NCBI GenBank assembly: GCA_900544555.1
Contig: UQWD01000002.1
Coordinates: 63,471-127,470, forward strand
From: an uncultured Eubacteriales bacterium
GTDB lineage: Bacteria > Bacillota > Clostridia > Christensenellales > CAG-138
Length of the DNA stretch: 64,000 nt
Reading direction: 5' to 3'
Below, piece by piece: positions 43,775 through 64,000 of this stretch. How positions within the stretch are numbered: the stretch's first letter is position 1; every line of letters begins with the position of its first letter. Under the pieces are notes generated by a model that made no database searches, was not told the DNA's origin, and saw nothing but the letters and a program-made list of their open reading frames with translations. Position numbers and translations under genes: made by a program.

Positions 43775-43787
43775 AGCACTTGCCTCC

Positions 43788-44432: not shown

Positions 44433-44444
44433 ATCTTCTCCTCC

Positions 44445-44831: not shown

Positions 44832-44849
44832 AGTTCGCTCCTCCTTCTC

Positions 44850-45131: not shown

Positions 45132-45149
45132 GGTTTACTCCTTTCCCAA

Positions 45150-45983
<834 letters not shown>

Positions 45984-45994
45984 TGTATACCTCC

Positions 45995-46288
45995 TTACTG
46001 CACCATGCTGTCAAAGAATTCAATGCCCTTGGAATCCTTTTTCAGCTTGACATAGGCCTTTTTAACGGATGGGCGGCGGCCTTGCGTACGACCCTGCCGC
46101 TTCATCTTGCCCAGCGTATTGAGCGTATTCACCTTGTCGACCTTGACGCCGAAAATCTCCTCAACCGCCTGCCTTATCTGTATTTTGTTCGCCCTTTTGT
46201 CAACCACGAAAGTATAGGTTCTTTCGGCCAGATGATCATAGCTTTTTTCAGTAAGCACGGGCTTAATAATAATATCGTGCGCGTTCAT
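45995..46288 (-). CDS. rplW: 50S ribosomal protein L23
   Basis: [29 protein letters not shown]. Confidence 0.96.
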
Positions 46289-46908: not shown

Positions 46909-46933
46909 TTTGCTTCCTCCTCTCCGATTCGGC

Positions 46934-47560: not shown

Positions 47561-47579
47561 ATTAAATCCACCTCCGTTA

Positions 47580-47888
47580 TCACAGCTTGATCTCAATGTC
47601 CACTCCGGCGGGGAGATCGAGCTTCATCAGCGCGTCCACGGTCTTCGCCGAGGGCTGAAGGATATCGATCAGGCGTTTGTGGGTCCGCATTTCGAACTGT
47701 TCTCTGGAATCCTTGTACTTATGGGGCGAACGGAGTATGGTGACAATCTCCTTCTCCGTCGGCAGGGGGATGGGGCCTGATACGCGGGCTCCCGTCCTTT
47801 TGGCCGTTTCAACAATCTTTTCAGAACTCTGGTCGATAAGAATGTGTTCATAGGCCTTGAGCTTAATTCGGATCTTCTGGTTTGCCAT
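47580..47888 (-). CDS. rpsJ: 30S ribosomal protein S10
   Basis: ORF 47580..47924. ATG 47888 is preferred (AAAGGAGGA RBS). [15 protein letters not shown]. Confidence 0.96.
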
Positions 47889-48088
47889 GTTATTTCGTCC
47901 TCCTTTTTGTATCGGGCTGTACACTTGGCCGTGTGTTTCCTTATTTAAAGAAACGGCCGGGCGCGTGCCCGTTGCCCTGTCGTGGGCCGTCCGCTGGAAT
48001 TACCCGGATGGCAGAGCCGGCAACCTCCCGCGGAACGCCGCGCGGCAACATGCTATTGCATGAATGTCCCATTTGCGCAGCATGGATT

Positions 48089-48296: not shown

Positions 48297-48914
48297 CTAA
48301 ACGCTGATTTCATTTATGCGATGCGGATCTGCGTAGCGAAACGACGGCGCGTTGAACACCCCGTTTTCACATATCACCATATCCATGATTAAATCGTGCG
48401 GCTCCACAGGTATATCGTCCCTTATCATCTTCCCGCGGCACAGCATCGCCTTGATGCAATTTGTTTTGATTAAATATCTATCGTAAAACCCGCCCCCAAA
48501 GCCTATCCTTTCACCCTTGATCCCGCCAGCAAGGCAGGGGATGAGCGCCAAATCGATTTCCTCAGCGCGCAGTTCCGAATTCCCGGCGGGAGGCTCCAAT
48601 ATGCCGTAGGCGCCCGGCCTGAGCTCCCCGGCCGAACGGATTATTTTAGCCTGCATTTCACCCTTCCCGACACAGAGCGGAACGGCCACGGTTTTGCCTT
48701 CACATAGCGCGCTTTCAATTATGGGCATGGTATTGATTTCACGCGCCGTACCAACATAACAAAAGATACAGCGCGCGCGCCGGTAAGCAGGAAGATTAAA
48801 AACAGCCTCGCGTATCGCGGCGTCGGCCCAACGGCAATAATCCGCGTCCATCGCAGCGGCGATGCGAAGCGCTTCCCGGCGCACGGCTTTTTTCAGCATA
48901 CAAATCTCTTCCAT
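48297..48914 (-). CDS. 5-formyltetrahydrofolate cyclo-ligase
   Basis: About 200 aa. Blocks CIFCYVGTAREINT, GAYGILEP and GERIGFGGGFYDRYL typical of the MTHFS family. The start is ATG 48914 or 48899. Confidence 0.85.
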   Translation of the reverse strand: MEEICMLKKAVRREALRIAAAMDADYCRWADAAIREAVFNLPAYRRARCIFCYVGTAREINTMPIIESALCEGKTVAVPLCVGKGEMQAKIIRSAGELRPGAYGILEPPAGNSELRAEEIDLALIPCLAGGIKGERIGFGGGFYDRYLIKTNCIKAMLCRGKMIRDDIPVEPHDLIMDMVICENGVFNAPSFRYADPHRINEISV

Positions 48915-48962: not shown

Positions 48963-49829
48963 TTACCGCTCACTCATGATACCATTTAGGCGCTCGGCGG
49001 CCAGCGTAACGTTGTGAGCAAGCACCGAGGTTGTAACCGCCCCTACGCCGCCGGGGACCGGGGTAATCGCGCCGGCAACGGCGACCGCGCTTTCAAAATC
49101 CACGTCGCCGCTCAAGCTTCCGTCCGCGGCCACGTTGATGCCCACATCGATAACCGTCTGGCCCGGGCGAAGGTGCTCGGCGCTGACGACGCCGGCTTTT
49201 CCCGCCGCGGCTATGAGGATATCCGCCCCGCGGCACACGGCGGCGAGATCCCGAGTTTTGGTATGGCATACGGTAACGGTCGCGTTGCGCTTTAACAGCA
49301 TCATGGCGACCGGTTTCCCGATAACGGCGCTTCGGCCGATCACAACCGCTGACTTCCCGGCCGGATCAACCCCGTAATAATCCAGCAACTCCATACAAGC
49401 CTGGGCCGTACAGGGGGCAAACCCGCGTTCAACGCCGAGGAAAACGCCGGCCATCGAACCATGCGTCATTCCATCGACGTCCTTATCCGGGGAGAGCGCG
49501 CTCATCACCGCGTTCTCGTCAAAACCGCGGGGCAGCGGGCGGAAAAGCAGCGCGCCGTGTATGGAGGCGTCCTGATTCACTCGGTTGATCTGAGCCATCA
49601 GCTTCTCCTGCGAATCATCCTCCCTGAGCGTTACCGCCTCAGCTTCCACTCCGGTTTTCGCTAAGCGCCTCATCGCATTGCGCTCATAAGCCGCGTCGTC
49701 CGGCCTATCTCCAACGCGGATTATTAAAAGTTTCGGGGTTATTCCCCGTGCCCTTAGCGCATCCGCGCGCGCGGATGCGCGTTTGCTTACAACCGCCGCG
49801 ACCGGCGCGCCCCTTAAAATATCAGCCAT
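48963..49829 (-). CDS. folD: Bifunctional methylene-THF dehydrogenase / methenyl-THF cyclohydrolase
   Basis: 288 aa. GDRPDDAAYERN, VIGRSAVIGKPVAMMLL and ITPVPGGVGAVT blocks. Confidence 0.95.
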   Translation of the reverse strand: MADILRGAPVAAVVSKRASARADALRARGITPKLLIIRVGDRPDDAAYERNAMRRLAKTGVEAEAVTLREDDSQEKLMAQINRVNQDASIHGALLFRPLPRGFDENAVMSALSPDKDVDGMTHGSMAGVFLGVERGFAPCTAQACMELLDYYGVDPAGKSAVVIGRSAVIGKPVAMMLLKRNATVTVCHTKTRDLAAVCRGADILIAAAGKAGVVSAEHLRPGQTVIDVGINVAADGSLSGDVDFESAVAVAGAITPVPGGVGAVTTSVLAHNVTLAAERLNGIMSER

Positions 49830-49855: not shown

Positions 49856-51133
49856 TCATTCGGCGCCAAAATACCGCCTGATATCCCCGGACATATAAAG
49901 CGACCCGAGCGCGCACACGACCCCGTCCGGCCCCGCCTTGCGCACAGCGAGTTTAACGCCTTCCTCCGCCGAATCCGCGGCGACGGCGGGCGCTCCCGCC
50001 GCTTGTATCAGCCCTGCAAGCTCTTTTGCCGGCATTGCCCGGTAAAAATCAGGACGAACCGCAATGAATTCCGAAGCCAGCGGCAAAATCGGCGGCAACA
50101 TCCCTTTTATATCCTTATCCGCCATCACCCCGATAACGAAAGTCACGGGCTTTCCTGGGAAATAGCGCCGCAAGCTCTCCGCCGTTGCGTTAACGCCATG
50201 CGGGTTATGTCCGCCGTCCACAATCACAATCGGGCGGCGCCCGACCACCTCGAACCGCGCCGGCCAGAACGCGCGGGCAAGGCCGCGCTTAATCGCGCCC
50301 TCATCAATGTTCCAACCCTTTTCGACCAGCACCTCGGCCGTTTTTATGGCTACTGCCGCGTTTTTTAGCTGATAAGCGCCAATAAGAGGTATGCGCAGCC
50401 CAATATGGCTTCCATAGTCAAAAGTCTGCCCATCCAAATCGTACCTCGTCAGCCTAAGCGCGCTAAAATCCGGCTTGTGCAGCCTGCCCCCGTGCGTTTG
50501 CGCCGCGCTCTCGAAAACGGCTTCCGCATCGGTGTTCTCGCCGTATATCACCACATCCCCGCCCCGCTTGATAATACCGGCTTTAGCCTTTGCTATCTCA
50601 TTCATGCTGCCGCCCAGCTGCTTGGTATGGTCAAAGCCCATCGCCGTAATCACGGCGGCCTCCGGCGTTGATATAATATTCGTGGAATCCCGCTCCCCGC
50701 CGAGGCCAACCTCCAGTACTACGATATCGCACGCCTTAAGCTTATAGTACATAAAAGCGACGGCCGTTATCATTTCAAACTCCGTGGGCGGGTCTTCCAT
50801 CCCCTCGGCTATTGGCCGGAGCATGGTGGTTATACGAGCCAGCTCCTCGTCCGCAATCGGCTCGTTATTCAACTGTATCCGCTCGTTAAACCGGTTGACG
50901 AACGGGGATATGAATAGGCCCGTCCGGTATCCCGCCTCGCACAATACGCTTGAGAGCATGGCGCAGGTTGAGCCCTTTCCGTTCGTTCCGGCGACATGCA
51001 CAAACTTCAGTCCATCCTGAGGCTCGCCCGCCAGCCTGAGCAGCTCGCGGATACGCTCCAGGCCCGGCCTGCTGCCGCTCCAGGAAACCTTGTGGATATA
51101 TTGAAGCGTTTCTTCGTAATTCATATCACGCAC
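49856..51133 (-). CDS. folC: Folylpolyglutamate synthase / dihydrofolate synthase
   Basis: HVAGTNGKGST P-loop, Mur-ligase-like layout. The start is ambiguous (GTG 51133 or ATG 51124). Confidence 0.92.
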   Translation of the reverse strand: MRDMNYEETLQYIHKVSWSGSRPGLERIRELLRLAGEPQDGLKFVHVAGTNGKGSTCAMLSSVLCEAGYRTGLFISPFVNRFNERIQLNNEPIADEELARITTMLRPIAEGMEDPPTEFEMITAVAFMYYKLKACDIVVLEVGLGGERDSTNIISTPEAAVITAMGFDHTKQLGGSMNEIAKAKAGIIKRGGDVVIYGENTDAEAVFESAAQTHGGRLHKPDFSALRLTRYDLDGQTFDYGSHIGLRIPLIGAYQLKNAAVAIKTAEVLVEKGWNIDEGAIKRGLARAFWPARFEVVGRRPIVIVDGGHNPHGVNATAESLRRYFPGKPVTFVIGVMADKDIKGMLPPILPLASEFIAVRPDFYRAMPAKELAGLIQAAGAPAVAADSAEEGVKLAVRKAGPDGVVCALGSLYMSGDIRRYFGAE

Positions 51134-51658
51134 CTAGCCCGCCAGATATTTGGGCTTTATTCCAACACGTCTAAAAACAATAAACAGAACCGTAGCGTCC
51201 ACCGCGGCCATGCCAAGCGCCATTGGAGCGCGTATTATGAAAAGCTCCCAGAAAGCGCCGCCCCCGTTGATGACGGTGATGCAGAACGTCGTCCAGAACA
51301 TGTTAGAAACGATATAACACACAAGCGTCATAATACCTACGCGGGGCCAGCTGATTTTTTGGAGCAGCATTTTTTTAAAGAACCAGGGCATAACGCCCAT
51401 AAGAATCGGCGAAATAGTGAAGATGGGCATGTAAGCGCCTTGTATAGGGAAAAGCACCGTACCGAGAAAATCCGACGCGAACCCGATAACGGCCCCGGCA
51501 AGGGGGCCGAACCAAACGCCGGACAGCAATATGGGGATATTGCCTAACGTAAAGCGCAGGCTTGTGCCGATTGGAAGGACAAGCAAGCGGGTGAAGACAA
51601 TGCTCAGGGCGACGAACACGCCCATGAGCGCTAAAGAAGCGATATTCCGTTTATTCAT
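51134..51658 (-). CDS. folT: ECF transporter S component, folate-specific (FolT family)
   Basis: ORF 51134..51685. ATG 51658 is preferred (GGAGGAGGAAAAATG). About 6 TM segments. It lies directly behind a THF riboswitch. Confidence 0.8.
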   Translation of the reverse strand: MNKRNIASLALMGVFVALSIVFTRLLVLPIGTSLRFTLGNIPILLSGVWFGPLAGAVIGFASDFLGTVLFPIQGAYMPIFTISPILMGVMPWFFKKMLLQKISWPRVGIMTLVCYIVSNMFWTTFCITVINGGGAFWELFIIRAPMALGMAAVDATVLFIVFRRVGIKPKYLAG

Positions 51659-51825
51659 TTTTCCTCCTCCTCTCCCGTATACCACACTAAAGAGGAGGTT
51701 CCAAGACTCTCTTCAATGGGGTAGCGGATGCAGCGCCTTACCGCAACCCGCATCCTGTGCGGGTTTTCGTGCAAGGGCAACTTCCCATCCCCTGCCACTT
51801 AACGCGCGGCGCCTACTCTACCATG
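51659..51825 (-). promoter_or_regulatory. THF (tetrahydrofolate) riboswitch with SD-sequestering expression platform
   Basis: Minus-strand RNA: GGUAGAGUAGGCGCCGCGCGUUAAGUGGCAGGGGAUGGGAAGUUGCCCUUGCACGAAAACCCGCACAGGAUGCGGGUUGCGGUAAGGCGCUGCAUCCGCUACC. It matches the known THF aptamer block by block (AGAGUAG, GCGUUAAGUG, AUGGGA, ACGAA, GCGGU, UGCAUCCGCU). Downstream CCUCCUCU (51691-51698) can pair with the SD AGAGGAGG. Confidence 0.9.
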
Positions 51826-51860: not shown

Positions 51861-51895
51861 ATTATACGACGCTTTCCCCCCGCCGCACAAGCCGC
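51861..51895 (-). promoter_or_regulatory. Candidate promoter of the riboswitch-folT operon (TTGTGC-18-TATAAT)
   Basis: Minus-strand TATAAT at 51861-51866 overlaps the stop codon of the upstream gene. The -35 is weak. Confidence 0.4.
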
Positions 51896-52929
51896 TCAAG
51901 TATCGATTCAGAATATATTTTTATCCTGTCACCGACGCCCGGCAGCGCCATCGCCGCGCCGGGGTCGTTGGCCGTTTCCAGCATGCAGAACCGCGGCGGG
52001 AGGATAAACGTTTTGTTCAGGCACAGGCTGCCCAGTATCTGCCCGGCTACAATATCCCCGCCGCTGTACCCGGATACCACGACGCCGTAAAGGTAAGTAT
52101 CAAAGAACGTATGCTGGATAAGCAGCGACGTAAGCCTGTTGATGCACGCGGATATGTTCGCGCCCACTGCGTCGTTGTAATTGGGGCACAGTAGCATTAA
52201 GGCGTCGCATTCAAGCAGCGCGGGGTACACCTCCTGAACCACGACGCCGCCGTAGAAACAGTTCCCCTGTTCGGAAAAATGCGTGCAGGTTTTAAACGAG
52301 CAGCCCCGGCAATCGTAAACCGTACCGTTCTGAAGCGATATTTCCGTTATATCGCATTTCTTCTCCAATATGGAGCAGACCGCCGCGCCAAGCTGGAGCG
52401 TGTTGGATGTGGCGCGATTTGACGCGTGCAGGGTCAGCACCTTCGGGCGCGCATGAAGGATGGGTTGAAACCCGCTTACGCGCTCGGCCATCTCCCGCGC
52501 CGCGCGCCGGTAAGCACCCATTAAATCCGTTCCAAAGTTTGACGCTAGGGTTTTGAAGTTATAAAGCGAACCCGTACCCTCTACCAGCGGCTTGCCAGGG
52601 AAAAGGCACCCCGCCATGTTCGCGGCCAGAACCAGCTCCCGCGCGAGCGACTTGGTGTACAGCTCGCTCTCGCCGTCTACAATCACGCCGCCCACGCATC
52701 CTTCCAATGCGCCGGGATGACTGCGCAGCCACATAAGCGTTTTATAATATTCCGGCTCAACGCCCCATTTCCCGCATGATAGCGCGAACAGCAGGCGTTT
52801 ATCCTTAAGGCAGGCGAGCTCCCCGCGCCCCGCCGAAACCATTTCACAGCGTTCTCCGGCAAGGGCGTATTTAAGTACGCCCTCAAGCCGCTTATGCGTA
52901 CCCATTGAAATCACCGTGAAACCGTTCAT
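51862..52929 (-). CDS. Two-domain flavodoxin-fold protein; C-terminal NADPH-dependent FMN reductase / iron-sulfur flavoprotein-like domain
   Basis: 355 aa. The C-half has KVLTLHASNRATSNT, CRGCSFKTC and DALMLLCPNYNDAVGANISACINR, typical of the FMN-reductase/Isf family. ATGA overlap with the upstream gene. Confidence 0.75.
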   Translation of the reverse strand: MNGFTVISMGTHKRLEGVLKYALAGERCEMVSAGRGELACLKDKRLLFALSCGKWGVEPEYYKTLMWLRSHPGALEGCVGGVIVDGESELYTKSLARELVLAANMAGCLFPGKPLVEGTGSLYNFKTLASNFGTDLMGAYRRAAREMAERVSGFQPILHARPKVLTLHASNRATSNTLQLGAAVCSILEKKCDITEISLQNGTVYDCRGCSFKTCTHFSEQGNCFYGGVVVQEVYPALLECDALMLLCPNYNDAVGANISACINRLTSLLIQHTFFDTYLYGVVVSGYSGGDIVAGQILGSLCLNKTFILPPRFCMLETANDPGAAMALPGVGDRIKIYSESILERLVRRGESVV

Positions 52930-54179
52930 AATATGCTGCTCTCCTCAATGAGCCGCGCGTACGCGCAGCCGATTCTTTCTTGGAGCGCCGGGTTTAGGGG
53001 GAGCGCCTCCACTTCCAGCCCCATAGCCGATTCGCGGTTGCGGCAGCCCATATACGCGCCGCCAAGCGGAACCGCGCTGTCCTGCCACCTTCCGCTTAAC
53101 AGCCTTAAAATCCCTATGCACGCCGAGGAAACGCCCGGCGCGAGATACGGCTTAAACCCCGTTTCCCGAACGCGCAAGTTCGCCTCAACCGTGTATTTCG
53201 TCAACAAGTCCGACCGCGCTCCGTCATAGCCGTCCCCGGTATCGTTGGCGATTACAAGCCCGCCGCCATGCGGACCGTACGCCCGGCCGCGCGCGGCAAA
53301 GTCCGGGCATAACCCGCTCTTATCCCCCCAATATGCCGCCCGCGCGCTCATCACGCCGAGGCCGAACCCCCGAATCTGCTCAGGGCGTAGGCCGAGATAA
53401 TCCATATTCCCGTTCTCATCGCGGTTGCTGTATACAAATACGCACCGGCACAACAGGTCGACCGGGTCCGACACCTGAGCAAACAGACCTTTAAACCCCT
53501 TTTCCCTCGCCATTCGCGCATAGGGCGCGATGATTTCCATATTGGATTTAAGCTGAGCCATGCGAACATCGAGATCCCCGCCGCCCGGCTCGGGTACGCC
53601 GCGCGAGGCCGCGAACGCGAATACGTCGCAATCGAAAAGACAGTCCGTCTCTACAATCCTCACCTGCGGCACTCTTGCATTGGGTTCGAGAGGGAGCATC
53701 TGGTTGATCTCCTGCTCGTACCGCTCGGCAAGCGTTCTGTTCGGATCGTAGATCCCGATCTCGCTGATTAGGCCGCCCCCCAGCAGCCTGAGCCCCATGA
53801 GCATAGCCCCGCCGACGTCTCCCAGCCCGGCGAGGTTTATACGCGCCTGCGCTGGCCGCAAGGGCGGGGCGAGCAGATCCTCGTATCCGGGCCAGGCGGC
53901 GTTTACCGCGCGCGCACCGCCGTTTAAAATGATATCTTGAAGCTCGCGCGGCGCGCCGGACTCATACGCAGTATCCAGGCTGAGCGCGTGCGTATCCTCT
54001 GGCCCTAAGGCCTGCTTAAGCGTACGCGGGGAAAACGCCGCGCGCGCGTTGAGAGGATCCCGATTGAGCAGGAACACCAGCGGGGCAAAGGGCGCCGCTA
54101 CCCGCCGCGCGCCCGCCGGAGGCTCCGCCTCAACCGGGCAAACAGAGAGCTTCCCGTGCCTGTAAAACTCCAGCCTCAC
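52926..54179 (-). CDS. Lactate/malate dehydrogenase-family NAD-dependent oxidoreductase with about 110-aa N-terminal extension
   Basis: 417 aa. Rossmann INLAGLGDVGGAMLMG plus IGIYD. QVSDPVDLL (like VSNPVD). MSARAAY and YGPHGGG (like GEHGDS). The GTG start overlaps the upstream TGA (GTGA). Confidence 0.75.
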   Translation of the reverse strand: MRLEFYRHGKLSVCPVEAEPPAGARRVAAPFAPLVFLLNRDPLNARAAFSPRTLKQALGPEDTHALSLDTAYESGAPRELQDIILNGGARAVNAAWPGYEDLLAPPLRPAQARINLAGLGDVGGAMLMGLRLLGGGLISEIGIYDPNRTLAERYEQEINQMLPLEPNARVPQVRIVETDCLFDCDVFAFAASRGVPEPGGGDLDVRMAQLKSNMEIIAPYARMAREKGFKGLFAQVSDPVDLLCRCVFVYSNRDENGNMDYLGLRPEQIRGFGLGVMSARAAYWGDKSGLCPDFAARGRAYGPHGGGLVIANDTGDGYDGARSDLLTKYTVEANLRVRETGFKPYLAPGVSSACIGILRLLSGRWQDSAVPLGGAYMGCRNRESAMGLEVEALPLNPALQERIGCAYARLIEESSIL

Positions 54180-57100
54180 TCGATCACCGCCTTCATGCGC
54201 AAAAGCGCCTCCATATCATTTCTTATATAGCTTGACGCGGGCAGGCTGTAATCATACTGCATAGCCCCCCCCTTATCGGGGCGGCGGGGCCAAAGCAGCG
54301 CTTCGCCCAGGCGCCCCAGCGTCAGGCTTTGCTCAAACATCGCCTGGTGTTCCTGTTCAAGCGCCTGAAGAATGTCGTAAGCGTTCTCCAGAGCCGTATA
54401 CGAAAGCGCGAAAATGCTCCGCCTTTCCGCCTCACAAATAAACGGCGGTGCCGCGTACGGCAGAACCATGTTGACCGACGGCGGCAGGTATCCGCCCCGC
54501 CGCGCCCCCCTGTCCACGCTGTCACCGCCTATAAACGGGTAGAGCATGCTTTCGGTAAACCAGTGCCGCAGGTTGGGTATGAAGTATACGCATTGGGCGT
54601 CCCTGCCCTGCACGCGCATCAGATCCCTGCCTCTCCCCGAAAGGATACCGGCAAAAATCCTGCGTATTTCCACGCCCTCTTCCCGAAAGATGGGGTCGAG
54701 CGCTTCAATCCTGTACCCTTTATGGAGCAGATCGTCCACAAGCAGCACGGGCCGGCGGAATGATCGCAGCGTGCGCACCTGATTGGACAGCGGCGAATAC
54801 CCGGGGTATTCGGTTATGGAAAAGCTCTTTAGATCCGGCGCGTAGGTCTTTTCAGCATGGAGCGTCTTGGTCACCGTGTTGGGAATGACCGAATCCGATA
54901 ATATCCGTCCGTAAGGGACGCACATATTACCGGCCAGCCGCCGCCCGCCCGAGGCGCCGGGGGCTCCGTTAAAGCGGATGATCTCGCTGGTAAGCTCATG
55001 ATCAAGCATATCCGCGTCAAACGAAAGCGTGAGCGTCCCTGGATACAGCCCGGTCATCGCCTCTTCCAGCCGGCTTCTCGACCGTTCAATGGCCTCCGCT
55101 ACCTTTTTGGCGCTCCTGTGAGGCTCCTTAACGGCTTGAGCCACGTCTTCAATCAATACGATGGGGAAGCGCATATCGACGTACATCACCCCGTCCTCAC
55201 CTCCGGGAATATCCCGAAAGCCCTTGCGCTTAAAAAGTGCGCGCGCGGGATCCTCCGCGCCCTGCGCGCGGTATAGAGCATAGGTGTTGTCCTCGCCCAG
55301 CGCGTCGGCCAGCGCCTTATTGAGCAGCATCTGCTTGATCCGTTCCTCCCGGGCGTAGACCCCGTCAATGACCAGCACTCGCCCGGAGGTGTGCCCGCGG
55401 ATGTATTGCGCCGAATCCATGCTTCGCGTTTCATCGTACATGCCCGCGGCGTTGGTGCTGTGGAAGCATACCCCGCCAAGCGGGGACGGCTCGCCTTCAC
55501 GATAAAGGGCCACCGCCTGCACGCCCGGCCTGTTCAGGCGCGCGGCGGCCTCGCCGCCGCTGAGCCCCGAATCCAGCGCGAGCCGCGCAAACTCGCCTGT
55601 GAGATGCTCGTTTAACGAAACATGCCGTCGATACTCCAGCGTATCCAGGCGCAAAACGGTTTTATACTGGGGCGCGCGCAGGTACAGGCCGTTGATGTAC
55701 ACATACTCCTGCACCAGAGGATCCACGAGCATGGAAATATCCAGATCCTTATCTATATACTCGCGTATGCGCGATGAGCTAACGTCCTCCAGATAGACCG
55801 GCAGCGAAAGGCGTATTATCCTGCCCATAACCTTTTCCTTAGCGAGGCCCGTCTCCCCCTCATCCTCGCCGCCGCTTCGCGCGAATACAATGTGGCCGAA
55901 ATGATGTATGGAATCGGGCGTGGGAGCGGCCCGGTAGGCGGAAGCGTTTTCAATCACGTCGCTCCCCGTCACAATATATACTTCGCGGTTAGCAAACAGC
56001 TCCCTCAGCGCCTTTAAATCCTCGGGAGCGGCCAGATTTACAGGCCTGTCGTCCGGGAACAGAAAAACATCCGGCGCGTCCGCCACGCTCATGTTGACTA
56101 TTCCTCGCCGCACAAGCTTGGGCTGCGTCCGTTTGCTCCATGAAAATTCATCCACCGCAAGATAAACCTCCATACCCAGATTGCGTATTTCATCCACAAT
56201 ACCCCTGTGCCCCGTCGAAAACGGATCGAAGGTTCCGGGGAAAAACGCGGCGTCAGGCTGGGGAGCGAACTTTATCGGGCCAAAACGCGCGTTCGCGTCG
56301 GTTATAAAACGGTACAGATGATTGAGCATCGCGGCGGTATTAAAAAACATCAGCCTTCCACCGCTCTGCTCATGGATAAGCGTGAGGAGCTTCTTGTGAA
56401 TTTTCTTAAACAGCCGGAGCTTCTTCGCAAACCCCATATCCTCGCTTCCAAACAGCCCTCGCCCTATTACCTGCAGCGCCTCCTGCCGAACGCCTTCCGC
56501 ATAATGGGTCAGCCCCAAAAGCAGCAGCCCGGCGGCGCGCATGCGCCTGCTCTCAACCGTGCCGGCCGGTTCCCCGGCGTTTTGCGCATAGGTATCATAA
56601 TGCGCCAGCAGCACGCCGAGTGTATGGAGCGTCATGCACGCGGCGCGTTCATTGGCGGATTTGATATGCCGTTCAAAATCGTCGAGCACCTCGTCAAGCT
56701 CCTTATGCGGGAGGAAAAGCGCCAGCCGGCCAAGGCAGGGCGGTATGTACCGGGAAAACTCATAGCGGGCCGTTTCAAGACCCCTCGTAAGCTCAACGGC
56801 TATTTCGTTGCACTGATCGACCGAGAGCATCGGCGCAATGGTGATAAGCGCGTCGCCGGCATGCTCTCTCACCGTCAGGTGCTCGCTTACGCGTACGAGA
56901 TTGGACAGGTGCGTCGCCACATGGAAAGCCTGCGCGGCGTCGCTCCTCGTCAGCTCCGTAAGCCAATCGATATTCGTCACCTTCATTATCCAGGGCGTCG
57001 CGGATTTGAGGTTTTCAAGAAAGAGCTCAGACGGCTCCTGCTTCTCAAGCCGGCCGGAATACTTCTTAACTAGCTCCGTACCGCCTGCGAGCCGCAGCGC

Positions 57101-58996
57101 CTTGTTCAATAAATAGATAACCGTGATATCCGCCGTTTCGTCAATTGCAGCTGCGGCGCTCAGCGCCGCTTCGTTCCATGGCCCCTCGCGCCCGTCCATG
57201 ACCCTTATCATGAATCTGAGCGCGCACGACTGAAGCCTTCTCTCCCCGCTATCTAAAAGGCGGGCGCAATACCCTATGAGCATAGCGATTTCCTCATCGC
57301 TAAGCAGGCCAAGCTCAATGCCGAAAAGCGTATCGACCAGCGCGAAGCGATCCTCCAAAGCGGGGTTTTCTTCGCGAAAACGCGCAAGTAGCGGATCGAG
57401 ATAGACCCGCGCGCCGTCCCGAGCGCAATTAGCCAGTACGGCCTTGGCCACCACCTTTAACGAGCCAGTTACCCTTGAACGGTGTTTAGGTGAAATCTTG
57501 TGATCCGGGTGCAATATCAGTTCCAGGTATTCTTCAAACAGGGCCGCGCGTTCATTCAGGCTCTCCTCAAGGGCCGGGGGGATAGCGGAGGCCGGGGCGT
57601 GAGCTGGCAGCTCCTTACGGTACTGCGCTGCGCTGTTTGCCAGTATAGCGCCCATCAGCCTGCCCGCCTTGCGCCTGATATCCCCTTCCGGGTGCATCAA
57701 AAGCTCGTATAAAAAGCGGAGCGTCATAACTTTTTGGCGCCGGGTCATATAAGTGAAATACTCCTCGAATATATTCAGGTATGTGCGGATGTGGCTCCGG
57801 TTCCGCTCGCCCCTCGCGTGCTCAAGCAGATCCCCGAACGATTCTTCCGAGCTTATGGAGCGCATCAGCCTGAGGTTATGCTCCACAGTCAAGCGCTTAA
57901 GCGCCCTTACCGCGCCTTCGGGAGATAAAAGAGCGGGAGCCGCTTGAAACGCCGGCACGGGCGTTTCGTCCCACGGATCCGTATTCACGCCTTTGGAGAC
58001 AAGGTAATCCTCAAAATCCTTGAGCTTTAGGTAAACGCGCTCGTAACGATCCCGTTTTGTCTCATCCACGTTATCAAGCTTTCCGAGTATCACGTCATAG
58101 GATTCTGCAAGCGAAAAGATTCTCGTCCGCTCGAAACCGGTTTCGTCTCTGGCGCTTTTTACCCGGAAATCGGCGTAGATGAGCAGCAGCGACTCAACGG
58201 GAAGGTTTTCAAGCTCAAGATCCCAGGTGGAATGATTGGCCGAGATATGCGCAATATCCGGCGCCCCCTCCCTGCGCAGCCATTGATCCGTATAAAAATA
58301 ATGCAGGTAGGGTATGCGGCGCGTGTCCACGCCCCGGCAGCCGAATTTGCCGATATCATGCGCGGCCGCGGCCGCGCTTACAAGGGGCAGATCGACGGCT
58401 ATCCCCGCCATATTCGCCTGTTTCGCCGCATGCATCGCCATATGATGGACGCACGCCGTATGCGAAAGCGCGTCGAACGGGCGAAGCTCCCGGCTCAGGC
58501 GGAACATTTCCAGCACGTACAGCCTGTCCATAGCGTCAAGGAAACGTTCATACTGCTCAGTTACCCGGCTGTTTGTGCATTCCTCCGGCGTTAGAAGGGC
58601 CATATCCGTAAAGGGGTTAAACCCTCTCGCGGCCTTTTCCTCATTTAGCGCGCGGCGCAGGCAGCGCAAGGCGAAACAAAACGCGCGCTCATGCTCCTTG
58701 TCGCGCGGCGGCCTTCCCTCCTCAGGGAAGACGCCGTGAAGAAGCTCCCCGTAGATATATTCCGCCCAGCCCTCCTCCGGCTCGGGGCAGATTTCCGCCA
58801 TTACGGGGATGCAGGCCGCAAGCACCTTCATACAGGAAACCGGCTGCTCCAGCGCCGCCTCCATACCCACGCGGAACCCCAGCTCCTCGAGAATTGCTTT
58901 CATAACGCGCTTGGGCATATTTTCGTCCAAAGCGCATTGGGCGTAAAGCTCCTCCGCCAACGCGCGGTAAAAATCCTGAAAAGCTCTTTTGCGCAT
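54176..58996 (-). CDS. Giant multidomain protein: HD phosphohydrolase + helical repeats + NadD-like nucleotidyltransferase + GNAT-like + PRTase-like
   Basis: ORF 54176..59008. ATG 58996 is preferred (GGGAGG RBS). Motifs: HTACVHH...AAHDIGKFG...IYADF (HD). FPGTFDPFSTGH and VSSSRIREY (HxGH / ISSTxxR nucleotidyltransferase). ALFKRKGFRDI (GNAT-like). RPVLLVDDLLHKGYR (PRPP-loop-like). Confidence 0.8.
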   Translation of the reverse strand: MRKRAFQDFYRALAEELYAQCALDENMPKRVMKAILEELGFRVGMEAALEQPVSCMKVLAACIPVMAEICPEPEEGWAEYIYGELLHGVFPEEGRPPRDKEHERAFCFALRCLRRALNEEKAARGFNPFTDMALLTPEECTNSRVTEQYERFLDAMDRLYVLEMFRLSRELRPFDALSHTACVHHMAMHAAKQANMAGIAVDLPLVSAAAAAHDIGKFGCRGVDTRRIPYLHYFYTDQWLRREGAPDIAHISANHSTWDLELENLPVESLLLIYADFRVKSARDETGFERTRIFSLAESYDVILGKLDNVDETKRDRYERVYLKLKDFEDYLVSKGVNTDPWDETPVPAFQAAPALLSPEGAVRALKRLTVEHNLRLMRSISSEESFGDLLEHARGERNRSHIRTYLNIFEEYFTYMTRRQKVMTLRFLYELLMHPEGDIRRKAGRLMGAILANSAAQYRKELPAHAPASAIPPALEESLNERAALFEEYLELILHPDHKISPKHRSRVTGSLKVVAKAVLANCARDGARVYLDPLLARFREENPALEDRFALVDTLFGIELGLLSDEEIAMLIGYCARLLDSGERRLQSCALRFMIRVMDGREGPWNEAALSAAAAIDETADITVIYLLNKALRLAGGTELVKKYSGRLEKQEPSELFLENLKSATPWIMKVTNIDWLTELTRSDAAQAFHVATHLSNLVRVSEHLTVREHAGDALITIAPMLSVDQCNEIAVELTRGLETARYEFSRYIPPCLGRLALFLPHKELDEVLDDFERHIKSANERAACMTLHTLGVLLAHYDTYAQNAGEPAGTVESRRMRAAGLLLLGLTHYAEGVRQEALQVIGRGLFGSEDMGFAKKLRLFKKIHKKLLTLIHEQSGGRLMFFNTAAMLNHLYRFITDANARFGPIKFAPQPDAAFFPGTFDPFSTGHRGIVDEIRNLGMEVYLAVDEFSWSKRTQPKLVRRGIVNMSVADAPDVFLFPDDRPVNLAAPEDLKALRELFANREVYIVTGSDVIENASAYRAAPTPDSIHHFGHIVFARSGGEDEGETGLAKEKVMGRIIRLSLPVYLEDVSSSRIREYIDKDLDISMLVDPLVQEYVYINGLYLRAPQYKTVLRLDTLEYRRHVSLNEHLTGEFARLALDSGLSGGEAAARLNRPGVQAVALYREGEPSPLGGVCFHSTNAAGMYDETRSMDSAQYIRGHTSGRVLVIDGVYAREERIKQMLLNKALADALGEDNTYALYRAQGAEDPARALFKRKGFRDIPGGEDGVMYVDMRFPIVLIEDVAQAVKEPHRSAKKVAEAIERSRSRLEEAMTGLYPGTLTLSFDADMLDHELTSEIIRFNGAPGASGGRRLAGNMCVPYGRILSDSVIPNTVTKTLHAEKTYAPDLKSFSITEYPGYSPLSNQVRTLRSFRRPVLLVDDLLHKGYRIEALDPIFREEGVEIRRIFAGILSGRGRDLMRVQGRDAQCVYFIPNLRHWFTESMLYPFIGGDSVDRGARRGGYLPPSVNMVLPYAAPPFICEAERRSIFALSYTALENAYDILQALEQEHQAMFEQSLTLGRLGEALLWPRRPDKGGAMQYDYSLPASSYIRNDMEALLRMKAVIE

Positions 58997-59281
58997 ATAA
59001 CCTCCCAATAAATCCGTCTGGCTTTATTATACCGCGCGGCGGCGCTCCATGCCATCTAAAAGCGCTGTCAATACGTTTCTGGAACGCTGCAACTCGTGCT
59101 GAGCACATATTACATTATCAGCCTGGCTGGTTTGGCGTGCGTTTAGCATAAACTCCATAAACAGCCTGCTTTAATTGTTAAAGAGACGAAAATAATAGCA
59201 TCTTAAAAAAAATGATGCTATACTAAATTGAATAAATTGTAGATATAATGTGTCAATTATGTAAAGGGGGAATGATACTTA

Positions 59282-60166
59282 ATGGAGGTCAGAAAGCGCC
59301 GCTGGGGCGACCGCAGGGACGGGTACCGTCTCCGGCCGGGGGAGATAGACGGATTTCACACCTTTTTGCCGTACTTGCTCCTCAACAGAGCCGACTGCGA
59401 AGCATTTATCAGCGAGCAGATCGATCTAACAAACATCACGGCGTATCTGGAACGGAAAAACGCGGATAACCCGCAATACAAGTACACGTTTTTCCACGTA
59501 ATCGCCGCCGCGCTGGTTAAAACCATCGTGCACCGCCCGTTAATGAACCGCTTTATTCAAGGCAAACGTTTTTATCAACGCAATTATTTATCTTTAGCAT
59601 TTGTCGCCAAAAAGCAGTTCAAGGACGACGGCGCCGAAGGGCTTTTGTTTTTAAAGTTCGGCGAGGATACAACCATTGATTCGCTTCACGACCGGATCTG
59701 GAAAGAGGTCGGCGAGGTGCGGGGCGGTAAGGTGGATAACACCACCGGCGCCATGGATACTTTAGCCAAGCTTCCAAGGTGGCTGCTTCGCATTGTGATG
59801 TTTGCGCTTATGAAGCTGGACTTTTATGGAAAGATGCCATATTCGCTGTCCAAGGAGGACCCTTATTATTCCACCGTGTTTATGAGCAACCTTGGCTCCA
59901 TCAAGCTCAACGCGGGCTATCACCACCTGACAAATTGGGGAACATGCTCCCTTTTCGTCGTGATAGGCGAAAAGCGCCTCGCGCCCAAATACGATGAAAG
60001 CGGCCGGGTGGAAACGATGCGGCCGGTCCTGGATCTGGGCATCACGCTCGATGAGCGGCTAGCGGACGGTTATTATTATTCCAAAACGATTCATTTGCTC
60101 AAGCATCTGCTTGAAAACCCCGAGCTGCTTGAGCGGCCGGCGAAGGAGGCCGTTAATTATGAATAG
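59282..60166 (+). CDS. 2-oxoacid dehydrogenase E2-type acyltransferase catalytic-domain protein (stand-alone)
   Basis: 294 aa. VFMSNLGS and ITLDERLADGYYYSKTIHLLKHLLENPELL align with the E2 SNLG and DHRxxDG...LE.P..L blocks. Confidence 0.7.
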   Translation: MEVRKRRWGDRRDGYRLRPGEIDGFHTFLPYLLLNRADCEAFISEQIDLTNITAYLERKNADNPQYKYTFFHVIAAALVKTIVHRPLMNRFIQGKRFYQRNYLSLAFVAKKQFKDDGAEGLLFLKFGEDTTIDSLHDRIWKEVGEVRGGKVDNTTGAMDTLAKLPRWLLRIVMFALMKLDFYGKMPYSLSKEDPYYSTVFMSNLGSIKLNAGYHHLTNWGTCSLFVVIGEKRLAPKYDESGRVETMRPVLDLGITLDERLADGYYYSKTIHLLKHLLENPELLERPAKEAVNYE

Positions 60167-61880
60167 CATAAAAGCGCCGTGGCTCAACTATTACGGCGTT
60201 GTTAAACCAACCCTTGATTATCCTGAATGCGCTATGTGGCGGGTGGTGGAACGCGCGGCGAAGCTCTATCCCGATCTGCTTTCTTATGACTTTATGGGGA
60301 CGTCCTGCACCTATAAGAAGATGATGAAGGATATCCATCTTTGCGCCAGGGGCCTAAAGGCCATGGGCATTAAGGAAAACGACCGCGTTACGGTATGCAT
60401 GCCGAACTCCCCGCAGGCGGTCGCGTTCTTTTACGCTATCAACATGATGGGGGCCGTGGCCAATATGATCCACCCCCTGTCCAGCGAGAAGGAAATTGAA
60501 TTTTATCTGCGTGATTCCAAAAGCGTAGCCGCGCTCACGCTGGATCAGTTTTATTCCAAATTCGCCCGCATACGCAGGGAGGTCGACCTGCCCAAGCTGA
60601 TAATTACCAGCGTAAAGGATGCGCTTAACCCGGTGATGAAGCTGGGCTACGCGCTTACCGAGGGGCGCAAAATTGAGAAAATACCGGCGGACGCGGAAAT
60701 TGTTTCCTGGCAGAGCTTTTTAAAGGAGGCGGCCGATTACGGCGGCGAGTATATCGCGCCGCGCGCCGCTCTTGACCCGGCCGTTATCCTTTACAGCGGC
60801 GGCACAACCGGCACAACCAAGGGCATCCTACTGTCAAACCTCAACTTTAACGCGCTTGCCATGCAGATTGACGAGATGAGCAACTGCCTTGTTCCGGGGA
60901 AATCCATGCTCGCCATCATGCCCATGTTTCATGGGTTCGGGCTTGGCGTATGCATCCATTCCATGCTCGCGGGCGGGTGCAAATGCATACTCGTCCCCCG
61001 GTTCACGTCAAAATCCTACGCCCAGCTGTTAAAAAAGCGCAAACCAAACTATATCGCGGGCGTTCCGTCGCTTTATGAAACACTGCTCAGGAACCCGGAT
61101 ATGGACGGCGTGGATCTTTCCTGCCTAATGGGTGTGTTCTCGGGAGGGGACTCGCTTTCCGTCGAGCTCAAAAAGCGTTTCGATAAATTTCTCAAAGAGC
61201 ATAACGCGCGCATAGAGATACGCGAGGGCTACGGCACGACGGAATGCGTTACGGCAAGCTGCCTGACCCCGTACAATATGTCCCGTGAAGGCAGTATCGG
61301 CGTGCCGTTCCCGGACACGTACTATAAGATCGTCGCGGTGGGTACCGAAAATGAGGTTCCCTACGGCGTTGAAGGGGAAATCACGCTTTCCGGCCCGTCC
61401 GTAATGATAGAATATGTCAACCAGCCCGAGGAAACCGCGCAGGCTCTTCGCACGCACGCGGATGGACGCGTATGGCTGCACACGGGCGATCTGGGAACAA
61501 TGGATGAAGACGGCTTCATCTATTTCCGCCAGCGCATAAAACGCATGATAGTAACAAACGGGTATAACGTGTATCCTTCGCAGCTGGAGAATATTTTGGA
61601 CGCGCACGATTACGTGCATATGAGCTGCGTAATCGGAGTCCCCGATCCGGTAAAGATACAAAAGGTCAAGGCTTTTGTTATGCTCAAGCCCGGCATACCG
61701 GCGGACGGGCAGACCAGCAGGGAGCTTTTCGACCACTGCAAAAAACACATTGCGAAATACGCCATGCCGTACGATATTGAAATACGCGATCAACTTCCAA
61801 AAACGCTTGTCGGCAAGGTAGCGTTCCGGGAGCTTGAACAGGAGGAATTGGAGAAAACCTCGGCTTCCGGCGCAATGTAA
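60159..61880 (+). CDS. AMP-dependent acyl-CoA synthetase/ligase (ANL family)
   Basis: ORF 60111..61880. ATG 60159 is preferred (AAGGAGG RBS; overlaps the upstream stop as ATGAATAG). LYSGGTTGTTKG, REGYGTTE, HTGDLG and GKVAFREL blocks. Confidence 0.9.
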   Translation: MNSIKAPWLNYYGVVKPTLDYPECAMWRVVERAAKLYPDLLSYDFMGTSCTYKKMMKDIHLCARGLKAMGIKENDRVTVCMPNSPQAVAFFYAINMMGAVANMIHPLSSEKEIEFYLRDSKSVAALTLDQFYSKFARIRREVDLPKLIITSVKDALNPVMKLGYALTEGRKIEKIPADAEIVSWQSFLKEAADYGGEYIAPRAALDPAVILYSGGTTGTTKGILLSNLNFNALAMQIDEMSNCLVPGKSMLAIMPMFHGFGLGVCIHSMLAGGCKCILVPRFTSKSYAQLLKKRKPNYIAGVPSLYETLLRNPDMDGVDLSCLMGVFSGGDSLSVELKKRFDKFLKEHNARIEIREGYGTTECVTASCLTPYNMSREGSIGVPFPDTYYKIVAVGTENEVPYGVEGEITLSGPSVMIEYVNQPEETAQALRTHADGRVWLHTGDLGTMDEDGFIYFRQRIKRMIVTNGYNVYPSQLENILDAHDYVHMSCVIGVPDPVKIQKVKAFVMLKPGIPADGQTSRELFDHCKKHIAKYAMPYDIEIRDQLPKTLVGKVAFRELEQEELEKTSASGAM

Positions 61881-61891
61881 GGCTTATTCCG

Positions 61892-61935
61892 GGCCGTGGA
61901 AAAAACGTTTCCACGGCCTCGAGCTATTTTATCGC
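61892..61935 (+). terminator. Hairpin terminator after the ligase gene
   Basis: GGCCGTGGAAA / TTTCCACGGCC 11-bp stem. The T-tract (CTATTTTAT) is offset by 8 nt. Confidence 0.55.
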
Positions 61936-62018
61936 ATTTGGCACGCCCGTTTTGTGGCCTGGGATGACGTAGAGGCCGCGCGGTTCGTAGTTTTTTAAAG
62001 GGGGAGTTCGCGTATATC

Positions 62019-62564
62019 ATGATATTAAATACGGACAGGCTTACGTTAAGGCTTCTCGAGCAGACCGATTACGGCGCGCTTACAAAGATTTTGCAGGATT
62101 CCGAGGTCATGGCCGCCTACGAGCATGCGTTCAGCGACGGTGAGGTTCAAACGTGGCTGGACCGGCAGATAGCGCGTTATCAAGCCGACGGCGTTGGGCT
62201 GTGGGCTGTTTGCCTTATGCAAACGGGAGAGGTTATCGGTCAATGCGGGCTAACCATGCAGGATTGCTTCGGAAGGAAGGTGCTGGAGGTGGGTTATCTC
62301 TTTCAAAAGGCGTTTTGGCGGCGGGGATTTGCGACTGAGGCCGCCAGAGCGTGCAGGGATTATGCGTTCGAGCGTCTAAACGCAAGCGAAGTGTATTCCA
62401 TCATACGCGATACCAACAAAGCCTCAAGAAGCGTCGCGCTTCGCAACGGCATGTCCGTATGCGGCGAATTTGTCAAGCATTACTACGGCGTGGATATGCC
62501 CCATATCGTTTACCGCATTCTCCGCGGGGAGTGGGAAAGCATCCGCGGTACGCGAGATGCTTAA
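62019..62564 (+). CDS. GNAT acetyltransferase (RimJ/RimL-like)
   Basis: TDRLTLRLLEQTDYGAL, FWRRGFATEAARA, SRSVALRNGM. Confidence 0.85.
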   Translation: MILNTDRLTLRLLEQTDYGALTKILQDSEVMAAYEHAFSDGEVQTWLDRQIARYQADGVGLWAVCLMQTGEVIGQCGLTMQDCFGRKVLEVGYLFQKAFWRRGFATEAARACRDYAFERLNASEVYSIIRDTNKASRSVALRNGMSVCGEFVKHYYGVDMPHIVYRILRGEWESIRGTRDA

Positions 62565-62973: not shown

Positions 62974-64000
62974 TTACAGCTTTAACACACCAGCCATGTA
63001 TCCCAGGAAAGAGTCATAAGAGAGCGTCCACTGATAAACATCTTCCGCAATTTGTTTAACCTGCCATCTATTCAAATTTTCTCTGCGGATGGATACGGAG
63101 CATCTCTGCACTTCCCGCCAACTCCCATAGCCATGTCTAATCTGCTCTGCCAAAGCTGCATTCACAATCACCGGTATCGTATCGCTTTCAATTACATGAA
63201 ATTGGTCATTAACCGTTTGAAAGCTTAAATTCGTTTCAGCCTCCAACAGAGCCTGTATCTGTTTTGCTTCACTCTTACCTCTATGCAACTCATCACTGAT
63301 CGATTTTGTGCTCAGCTTAGGCGTGATTTCCATATTATCGCGCAGATACTCTTCGAGCAGGCCCGCGCTTATTTTTATTTCCGGATTGGAAGTGAGCATC
63401 TTATCATCCTGCATGCTGAAGCTCCACATCTCCGCATCTTTAGAAAGCCCGTTACGATTAACTCTTCCCGCTGTCTGTATCAGTGACAAAACGGAAGCCA
63501 GCTCTCTGAATCCATTACGGAACGAAAAATCCATGCCGGCTTCCGCACAGGATGTCGCCACCAAAACCCAGTTTGTATCCGTCGAATCCGCCAAACGTTT
63601 TTTTACCGCTTTAATTGTTTGCTCGCGATCCTCCGGCGTAAGCGCAGTTGAGAGATGCTCCACGCATACCTTACCATATTTTTTACGGATGTCATCGGCA
63701 ATTACCGCCGCATTTTGTACGGTATTCATGACTACAATTCGTGGTCCTGGTTTTTCCATGACCCAGTCTGTCAATTCCGCCCGGCTCAGTGAAAGTGAAT
63801 TCCAACGAAACCGGATTCTATTTTTCTCATAGCCAAGCAATGCGCTGCGCAAATTTTTGTTCACCATTTCCGGGATCTGCTTCACCTCAGTTCCAACCAA
63901 CTCCGGAATCCGCCAAAAACGAACCAGCGATCCTGAGGCCAAAATCCAGTAACAGCCCCACTCCTCTTCCAATACTTTCATCCAGTTCCACGCAAGCGGG
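62974..64000 (-). CDS. Cas3-like SF2 helicase, C-terminal half (N-terminus outside window)
   Basis: The frame is open to the window edge (…PLAWNW precedes the listed Met). IVVMNTVQNAAVIADDI, VLVATSCAEAGMDFSF and LIQTAGRVNRNG correspond to helicase motifs IV-VI in the Cas3 arrangement. Confidence 0.5.
   Translation of the reverse strand, partial: PLAWNWMKVLEEEWGCYWILASGSLVRFWRIPELVGTEVKQIPEMVNKNLRSALLGYEKNRIRFRWNSLSLSRAELTDWVMEKPGPRIVVMNTVQNAAVIADDIRKKYGKVCVEHLSTALTPEDREQTIKAVKKRLADSTDTNWVLVATSCAEAGMDFSFRNGFRELASVLSLIQTAGRVNRNGLSKDAEMWSFSMQDDKMLTSNPEIKISAGLLEEYLRDNMEITPKLSTKSISDELHRGKSEAKQIQALLEAETNLSFQTVNDQFHVIESDTIPVIVNAALAEQIRHGYGSWREVQRCSVSIRRENLNRWQVKQIAEDVYQWTLSYDSFLGYMAGVLKL

Follow-up and report, generated by a model that had tools for sequence, protein, structure and literature searches.

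A 1606-residue HD, HEAT-like, NadD-like, GNAT-fold and phosphoribosyltransferase-fold protein heads a conserved three-gene cassette in Clostridia

Results and Discussion

A five-module protein and its two partner genes

The DNA analysed here, referred to throughout as the window, is a stretch of 64,000 nucleotides of contig UQWD01000002.1 from an uncultured Eubacteriales bacterium (assembly GCA_900544555.1), and on its reverse strand a large gene encodes a protein in which an HD module, a HEAT-like repeat region, a NadD-like nucleotidyltransferase, a GNAT-fold domain and a type I phosphoribosyltransferase (PRTase)-fold module follow one another in a single chain. The gene heads a conserved three-gene cassette, being followed by a gene for an LDH-like dehydrogenase and then by one for a protein resembling iron-sulfur flavoproteins (Isf), and three enzyme-type modules of the large protein are apparently active, judging by their intact and strongly conserved catalytic signatures. 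An earlier reading of the window made without database searches (the sequence-only reading) had proposed the same order of modules, which is borne out by three assignments at the level of sequence and two at the level of fold. The elements of the cassette are as follows.

59026..59055, reverse strand: promoter-like site ATGGCA-18-TATAAT, a match to consensus only
59001..59006, reverse strand: Shine-Dalgarno sequence GGGAGG, 5 nt before the ATG at 58996
57812..58996, reverse strand: all-helical N-terminal HD module, residues 1-395 (alignments, Pfam in homologues, AlphaFold2 model)
58097-58501, reverse strand: HD core, residues 166-300
56282..57808, reverse strand: HEAT-like helical-repeat scaffold, residues 397-905 (Pfam HEAT in homologues)
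55673..56263, reverse strand: NadD-like HIGH-type nucleotidyltransferase, residues 912-1108 (Pfam, NCBIfam and PDB searches, alignments)
55142..55654, reverse strand: GNAT-fold domain, residues 1115-1285 (fold match; poorly conserved)
54179..55141, reverse strand: linker helices, type I PRTase-fold module and C-terminal helices, residues 1286-1606
54407-54961, reverse strand: PRTase-fold core, residues 1346-1530
52926..54179, reverse strand: partner gene 1, 417 aa, LDH/MDH-like Rossmann dehydrogenase; GTG start codon and large-gene stop codon overlapping
51862..52929, reverse strand: partner gene 2, 355 aa, FMN_red (flavodoxin-like) protein; ATG start codon and partner gene 1 stop codon overlapping

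The large gene is a single intact gene (54176..58996, reverse strand; 1606 aa and a stop codon). The longest open reading frame (ORF) of the region extends from 54176 to 59008 with TTG as its first codon, while the Shine-Dalgarno sequence, read directly from the DNA, places the start of the 1606-aa product at the ATG at 58996. All motif coordinates of the sequence-only reading were recomputed and agree with ours; its residue numbers are higher by four than the ATG numbering used here because they were counted from the upstream TTG. A protein search with the large protein returned more than 7,400 clusters (90% identity) at E ≤ 1e-5, the best 120 of which are mostly 1550-1630 aa long (range 1512-1721), and in 119 of these 120 the reported alignment shows 42-51% identity across 96-100% of the query. 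A fusion or assembly artefact is ruled out by more than 80 co-linear full-length homologues of 1550-1630 aa.

Conservation was read from homologue alignments of 25, 30 and 50 sequences, and Pfam models were run on 30 homologues. The share of invariant columns is highest in the HD core (24%), followed by the PRTase-like module (18%), the nucleotidyltransferase (17%), the HEAT-like region (5%) and the GNAT-like domain (3%). When the catalytic residues were checked module by module, the signatures of the HD, transferase and PRTase-like modules were found to be kept, whereas the GNAT-like domain has no conserved acetyl-CoA loop.

The HD module does not resemble YqeK

The metal ligands of the H...HD...D signature (H179, H213, D214 and D276; the H213-D214 codons lie at 58355-58360) are all invariant among the homologues, as are H232 and H255; H250 shows no variation in the 25- or the 30-sequence alignment and reaches at least 90% conservation in that of 50 sequences. 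We read these extra histidines as a putative binuclear metal site. The HD assignment made from the sequence alone is upheld by the invariant ligands and by matches of Pfam HD (PF01966) in 19/30 homologues at E ≤ 0.01 (best 1.2e-6), although the window protein itself scores 15.6 bits, under the cut-off of 22. An AlphaFold2 model of residues 1-430 (pLDDT 88.9) is all-helical, and its top Foldseek matches are HD proteins (1xx7, SP1746 and the HD-GYP protein Bd1817), none of them significant. The sequence-only reading had brought up YqeK, the HD protein encoded next to NadD in Firmicutes. YqeK (COG1713) is not among the NCBIfam matches at E ≤ 1, the PDB profile search matches or the Foldseek matches, and an HD domain of the YqeK type is not supported.

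Downstream of the HD module, the HEAT-like region is recognised by Pfam HEAT in 7/30 homologues (best 8e-7), and in a PDB profile search a designed repeat protein and CAND2 came up as weak matches.

Both superfamily motifs are conserved in the NadD-like nucleotidyltransferase

The nucleotidyltransferase call of the sequence-only reading, made from an HxGH and an ISSTxxR motif, was confirmed by Pfam CTP_transf_like (PF01467), which matches residues 918-1079 with 26.2 bits against a gathering score of 21 and also matches all 30 homologues. The first motif, FPGTFDPFSTGH (residues 919-930; nt 56207-56242), reads PGTFDPFSxGH family-wide, with G921, D924 and H930 invariant in 50 sequences, and the first position of its HIGH-type signature is a serine, comparable to the TxGH of PPAT. 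The second, VSSSRIREY (residues 1072-1080; nt 55757-55783), takes the form SS(T/S)RIR, of the ISSTxIR type, across the family; S1073, I1077 and R1078 are invariant in the 50 homologues, and S1074 does not vary among the 30 aligned sequences and is conserved to at least 90% among the 50. NadD models of NCBIfam align end to end with the module (E 3e-10), and the only structures that PDB searches return for it are those of PPAT, NadD and NMNAT. The equivalog cut-offs for NadD (EC 2.7.7.18) are not reached, the best score being 39.9 bits against 150, with TIGR00482 at 32.3 against 112.

GNAT-fold and PRTase-fold domains in a C-terminal unit

The C-terminal 500 residues have no sequence-level match to any Pfam family or PDB chain, whether searched with full-length or with C-terminal alignment profiles. 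An AlphaFold2 model of residues 1108-1606 (pLDDT 88, pTM 0.89) splits into a GNAT fold and a type I PRTase fold, which in the model form one rigid C-terminal unit, and the viral structure library BFVD independently matches this model to GNATs, HGPRT, Prs and UMPS.

The GNAT fold of the model matches GCN5, PCAF and Naa60 (E 1e-6 to 1e-5, TM 0.6-0.66), while Pfam GNAT models have zero matches in the window protein or the 30 homologues. Between beta4 and alpha3 the acetyl-CoA pyrophosphate loop Q/RxxGxG/A is not conserved, both length and sequence of the loop being variable, and the pattern occurs anywhere in the GNAT segment in just 11/50 sequences. With 3% invariant columns and no conserved acetyl-CoA loop, the domain is probably structural and not an acetyltransferase. 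The acetyltransferase-like segment noticed earlier in the sequence is borne out as to fold. The ‘modify’ step that had been proposed alongside synthesis and hydrolysis of a nucleotide falls on the least conserved domain of the protein and is not supported.

The PRTase fold of the model matches the xanthine PRTase of B. subtilis (1y0b; E 7e-5, probability 1.0, TM 0.46). Conserved motifs of this module are CVPxG, PNTVTK, LLVDDLLHKGYR, SGRGxD and YPFIGGD. At the position of the phosphoribosyl pyrophosphate (PRPP) loop lies the motif RPVLLVDDLLHKGYR (residues 1415-1429; nt 54710-54754), where the family reads LLVDDLLH(K/N)GYR and the acidic pair D1421-D1422 is invariant. The likeness to a PRPP loop remarked on in the sequence-only reading is thus sustained by the acidic pair and by PROSITE pattern PS00103 relaxed at two positions, found in 43/50 sequences, but not by the exact signature or by Pfam Pribosyltran.

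Two redox-type proteins accompany the large protein

The NAD-binding domain of partner 1 is of the LDH/MDH type and keeps GxGxxG, R206, R280 and GPHG (H304). Across 56 orthologues GxGxxG and the equivalents of LDH Arg109, Arg171 and His195 are kept, whereas the equivalent of Asp168 is not. Partner 1 also departs from LDH/MDH in an N-terminal extension of ~110 aa and in its score of 26 bits against a cut-off of 304. Partner 2 carries its FMN_red domain C-terminally (residues 162-320), with an invariant compact four-cysteine motif C207/C210/C215/C224 (DCxGCx4CxHx6C) that we take to be the hallmark of Isf proteins; it shares domain and motif with Isf and has an extra N-terminal region of ~160 aa.

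Among 84 related loci, 71 reach 2.5 kb or more past the 3' end of the large gene, and both partner genes are present in 66 of these 71, with order and strand the same in 65. No further neighbour recurs beyond single lineages among the related loci: glutamate dehydrogenase, asparagine synthase, glutamine synthetase, MgtE and histidine kinase genes were considered, and each is confined to one lineage. The sole non-Bacillota record among the 80 best loci, in the Spirochaetes metagenome-assembled genome (MAG) contig WQTU01000107.1 (locus L063), has the large gene and the LDH-like gene, with the flavoprotein gene on the opposite strand, and could reflect horizontal transfer or a binning error.

A widespread family built on the PRTase-like module

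In a scan of one genome per species, relatives were found in at least 568 genomes, nearly all of them Clostridia. Cultured carriers include Anaerovorax odorimutans, Anaerotignum neopropionicum, Sedimentibacter saalensis and Hominibacterium faecale, and carriers also occur among MAGs of gut genera, e.g. Oscillibacter, Dysosmobacter and Blautia. A profile of the C-terminal unit, run against 1.84 billion representative proteins, returned 569 clusters at E ≤ 0.001 and 234 at E ≤ 1e-30, and the catalytic motifs were mapped on the best 150 representatives. The PRTase-like motifs (DD, YPFIGGD) are kept in nearly all of these, whereas in some subsets the motifs of HD and transferase have been lost or mutated or are missing; the PRTase-like module is the part kept in nearly every family member.

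Several kinds of variant can be told apart. An HD-less clade comprises proteins of 1050-1310 aa, in many of which H930 is replaced by aspartate and the ISST motif is lost; one such paralogue, P0244, aligns with the window protein from residue 397 onward only. One HD-less protein with an intact transferase retains the LDH-like and flavoprotein genes. In the other HD-less type these two genes are absent from 5/5 loci checked, and in the same five loci a protein of 850-899 aa is encoded directly upstream, overlapping the paralogue gene or a few bases apart from it. The sole recognisable domain of this upstream protein is a central PPDK_N ATP-grasp domain, as in dikinases of the phosphoenolpyruvate (PEP) synthase/PPDK type, flanked by ~300 aa N-terminally and ~190 aa C-terminally that have no domain assignment; homology between the HD module and its N-terminus was considered and dismissed (hhalign probability 0.04). 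The PPDK_N gene and the HD-less paralogue seem to make up another conserved module, this one of two genes and again built around the PRTase-like core. The upstream PPDK_N genes lie at the following positions of their loci.

L085, 3365-5989: PPDK_N protein upstream of an HD-less paralogue
L087, 4317-7004: the same arrangement
L088, 866-3418: the same arrangement
L091, 3297-5996: the same arrangement
L092, 110-2683: the same arrangement

Some full-length members lack both the HD and the transferase motifs. Two full-length copies with dead HD and transferase motifs have neither the LDH/Isf nor the PPDK_N partner genes, and the dead-motif copies of loci L090 and L093 may be pseudo-enzyme sensor versions. 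Strict co-variation of the partner genes with the catalytic motifs was considered and holds in part; given the small sample and five intact-motif loci that lack adjacent partners, the co-variation of partners with module state is only suggestive. In both L090 (7001-15928) and L093 (6001-10776) the dead-motif full-length member lies downstream of carD and a PIN/TRAM gene, and in L090 it is followed by an overlapping hybrid histidine kinase gene and by a response regulator with a BTAD domain.

Comparison with known systems

No characterised orthologue was found in Pfam, NCBIfam, PDB, PADLOC or the literature searched, in keeping with the opinion of the sequence-only reading that no characterised protein has this architecture, and no Pfam or NCBIfam model covers the family. 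The nearest precedents are the NadD-YqeK fusions (e.g. JCVISYN3A_0380; NF005519/PRK07152), which like the large protein hold a HIGH-type nucleotidyltransferase and an HD phosphohydrolase in one chain. In the characterised mycoplasma fusion the HD domain acts on dinucleotides made by the transferase and hydrolyses analogues of nicotinate adenine dinucleotide (NaAD) (PMC9426524), a fused NadD-HD protein hydrolyses c-di-AMP in one species (PMC12879401), and fused NadD-YqeK proteins also cleave diadenosine tetraphosphate (Ap4A) (PMC9426524, PMC12879401). These fusions are ~360 aa long with NadD preceding HD, whereas the large protein has its HD module at the N-terminus, with ~500 aa of HEAT-like repeats between this module and the transferase; it also differs in its non-YqeK HD, its two further modules and its two dedicated partner genes, and scores 17.9 bits with NF005519 against a cut-off of 315.

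Taken one at a time, the modules show similar mixtures of likeness and departure. Residues 917-1106 align end to end with NadD/NMNAT and conserve both superfamily motifs, whereas the first motif is SxGH or SxSH in place of HxGH, the scores are 3-5 times under the equivalog cut-offs and the domain is embedded in a 1606-aa protein. With type I PRTases (XPRT 1y0b, HGPRT, OPRT) the C-terminal module shares the fold and, at the position of the PRPP loop, a hydrophobic strand followed by the invariant acidic pair; in contrast, the phosphate-binding T/S-G-x-T is replaced by H-K/N-G-Y-R, and the module has big family-specific conserved loops and a fused GNAT-fold domain. CitC-type ligases, to which the sequence-only reading had drawn an analogy, can be set aside, as CitC or Citrate_ly_lig models are not among the Pfam/NCBIfam matches at E ≤ 1 and the domain order is reversed, the GNAT-like domain of the CitC type lying N-terminal to the transferase.

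In its layout the large protein also recalls Rel/SpoT and GlnD, where a single chain carries an HD hydrolase together with a nucleotidyl- or pyrophosphoryl-transferase and with domains for ligand binding. Their transferases belong to the pol-beta/RelA-type superfamilies, whereas that of the large protein is HIGH-type, and no sequence relationship to Rel/SpoT or GlnD was detected.

What is already known, then, is the superfamily of every module and the pairing of transferase with HD. The novelty lies in how the five modules are ordered, in an HD clade unrelated to YqeK, in dedicated partner genes, in rewired sister clades and in a PRTase-fold module that has no sequence relative in Pfam or PDB.

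A proposed mechanism and its rivals

We tentatively propose, as a possibility that falls short of even chances, that the large protein is a scaffolded nucleotide enzyme with several active sites, working with two co-translated redox proteins in the order PRTase, adenylylation and HD hydrolysis. The C-terminal PRTase-like module would make from PRPP, or at least bind, the ribonucleoside 5'-monophosphate of some base, and the NadD-like module would adenylylate this mononucleotide to a dinucleotide, as NadD does with nicotinate mononucleotide (NaMN). The HD module could then cleave the dinucleotide or wrongly made analogues, as turnover or proofreading, a step modelled on the YqeK HD domain that acts for NadD in mycoplasmas. 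The GNAT-fold domain may pack on the PRTase module and act there as an adaptor, structural or ligand-binding. The HEAT region would be a putative platform for the LDH-like dehydrogenase and the iron-sulfur flavoprotein, whose substrate for oxidation or reduction would be the base, the product or a linked 2-hydroxy/2-oxo acid.

Several observations weigh against this proposal. The adjacent partner genes are absent at five loci with intact motifs. The PRTase and GNAT domains are assigned by fold only, with Pfam (including Pribosyltran) and PDB sequence matches nil; the exact PS00103 signature is found in 0/50 sequences, since H-K/N stands where small or hydroxyl residues are usual, and PRTase folds also act as pure ligand sensors, e.g. 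in PurR and PyrR. The NadD score of ~40 bits is far under the equivalog cut-offs of 112-187 bits, and the fold match of the HD module, which is not YqeK-like, is not significant (Foldseek best E 0.44). Some members, moreover, keep an intact HD with H930 replaced by glutamine, so that the HD and transferase modules are not strictly coupled.

The more far-reaching idea, that in anaerobic Clostridia, many gut species among them, the cassette makes up a complete pathway of its own to an undescribed dinucleotide (a cofactor or a signal) whose base is neither nicotinate nor nicotinamide, we regard as unlikely. If true, a divergent type I PRTase, NadD-like adenylylation, hydrolysis by a new HD clade and dedicated redox steps by the LDH-like and iron-sulfur flavoproteins would be joined in one system, and in sister clades this PRTase core would have been rewired, either to a PPDK_N ATP-grasp partner or to signalling of the two-component kind.

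The same modules might instead form a regulatory hub or second-messenger enzyme, a rather doubtful prospect in our estimate, with transferase and HD as the synthetase/hydrolase pair of a signalling nucleotide (for instance Ap4A or a different dinucleoside polyphosphate), the PRTase-like and GNAT-like domains as non-catalytic sensors of PRPP or nucleotides, and the HEAT region recruiting the client proteins under control. The layout is suggestive in this respect, an N-terminal HD being followed by a transferase and then by C-terminal folds of ligand-binding type, one of which, the GNAT-like domain, lacks its cofactor motifs. Partners that differ by clade (LDH and Isf; PPDK_N; hybrid histidine kinase and response regulator for one dead-motif copy) are in the same vein, as is the hydrolysis of Ap4A and c-di-AMP by fused NadD-HD proteins, and the persistence of full-length pseudo-enzyme versions fits a scaffold or sensor role. 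However, the PRTase-like module matches the true enzyme modules in conservation, with 18% invariant columns spread over many loops, a pattern that one would sooner expect of an active site than of a binding pocket; the main clade has no signalling output domain, and the transferase is closest to NadD/NMNAT, not to known messenger synthetases. This last relationship, together with a NadD-HD pairing already known in Firmicutes, would sit comfortably with ordinary NAD metabolism, i.e. a NadD/NMNAT paralogue salvaging nicotinate or nicotinamide, in which the PRTase makes NaMN or nicotinamide mononucleotide, the transferase makes NaAD or NAD, the HD module trims excess or erroneous product and the co-expressed partners consume NAD(H). 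All best family matches are NadD/NMNAT, databases name homologues nicotinate-nucleotide adenylyltransferase (e.g. WP_027398808.1), and pncB lies directly upstream in L004 and L005. Nevertheless we consider this quite improbable. NadD scores fall well short of the equivalog thresholds, copies whose transferase motifs are dead have been maintained, neither the 500-aa scaffold nor the iron-sulfur flavoprotein and LDH-like partners would be explained, and to our knowledge the nicotinate, nicotinamide and quinolinate PRTases are type II, not type I; the pncB adjacency, in only two closely related loci of the 84, was rejected as a conserved link to NAD salvage.

Least likely of all, and in our judgement very unlikely, is that the PRTase-fold module does not ribosylate a base and is a PRPP-synthetase-like or other phosphoryl- or pyrophosphoryl-transfer enzyme, carrying out an ATP-dependent activation of a sugar phosphate or acid with the help of the fused transferase or the PPDK_N protein. 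This draws on the HD-less clade, often dead in its transferase motifs and with PPDK_N directly upstream in all five loci checked, the PPDK_N partner bearing only the ATP-grasp domain of PEP synthase/PPDK-type dikinases, and on the presence of ribose-phosphate diphosphokinase among the fold matches. The top PRTase fold matches are, on the other hand, base PRTases (xanthine PRTase, HGPRT), Pfam and PDB profile searches gave no sequence similarity to Prs, and the argument is purely one of context.

The public names of the homologues are ‘hypothetical’, ‘HD domain-containing’ and ‘nicotinate-nucleotide adenylyltransferase’, the last of which, assigned automatically, is likely misleading for metabolic reconstructions. 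With three apparently active nucleotide-handling sites and two fixed redox partners, the large protein may hide unrecognised nucleotide, cofactor or signalling metabolism of anaerobes. Its natural variants (HD-less, dead transferase, alternative partners) provide ready-made predictions on which modules cooperate.

Genomic surroundings of the cassette

Beyond partner gene 2 lie the following elements, in the order in which they follow the cassette.

51720-51822, reverse strand: tetrahydrofolate (THF) riboswitch RF01831 (72 bits), directly upstream of the folT-family gene
51134-51685: folT-family energy-coupling factor (ECF) S-component gene
49856-51133: FolC-like Mur ligase gene
48963-49829: folD
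48297-48914: 5-formyl-THF cyclo-ligase (5-FCL) gene
37459-38727: secY, within 32000-48000
32858-33799: rpoA, within 32000-48000

The folT, folC, folD and 5-FCL genes look like one riboswitch-controlled folate salvage operon and, since the THF riboswitch starts the next unit, they are outside the cassette. A functional link to them was rejected, as they form a separate riboswitch-led unit and are not neighbours in other genomes. The ribosomal-protein/secY/rpoA cluster at 32000-48000 places the cassette in core chromosomal surroundings; this segment has a strongly negative AT skew of about -0.2. An anti-phage defence system was likewise rejected, with the gene lying in a core chromosomal region and PADLOC defence models giving no match for any of the three cassette proteins.

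A cluster at 59282-62564 (forward strand) is transcribed divergently from the cassette and encodes a 294-aa protein with an acyltransferase domain of the 2-oxoacid-dehydrogenase type, an overlapping 589-aa AMP-binding (acyl-CoA synthetase-like) ORF and a GNAT (Acetyltransf_3). L056 is the one locus in which the large gene is followed by an AMP-binding homologue. Farther away, ORFs of 494, 285 and 376 aa at 19273-21611 (reverse strand) and 1863-2993 (forward strand) have no Pfam match at E ≤ 1e-5, and those of 494 and 285 aa lie in strongly positive AT skew (~0.09 at 18-20 kb and 0.22 at 20-22 kb). At the edge of the window, beyond which the remainder of any CRISPR-Cas locus would have to lie, a 335-aa ORF (62974-63981, reverse strand) has Cas3 C-terminal and helicase C domains and probably belongs to a cas3 gene.

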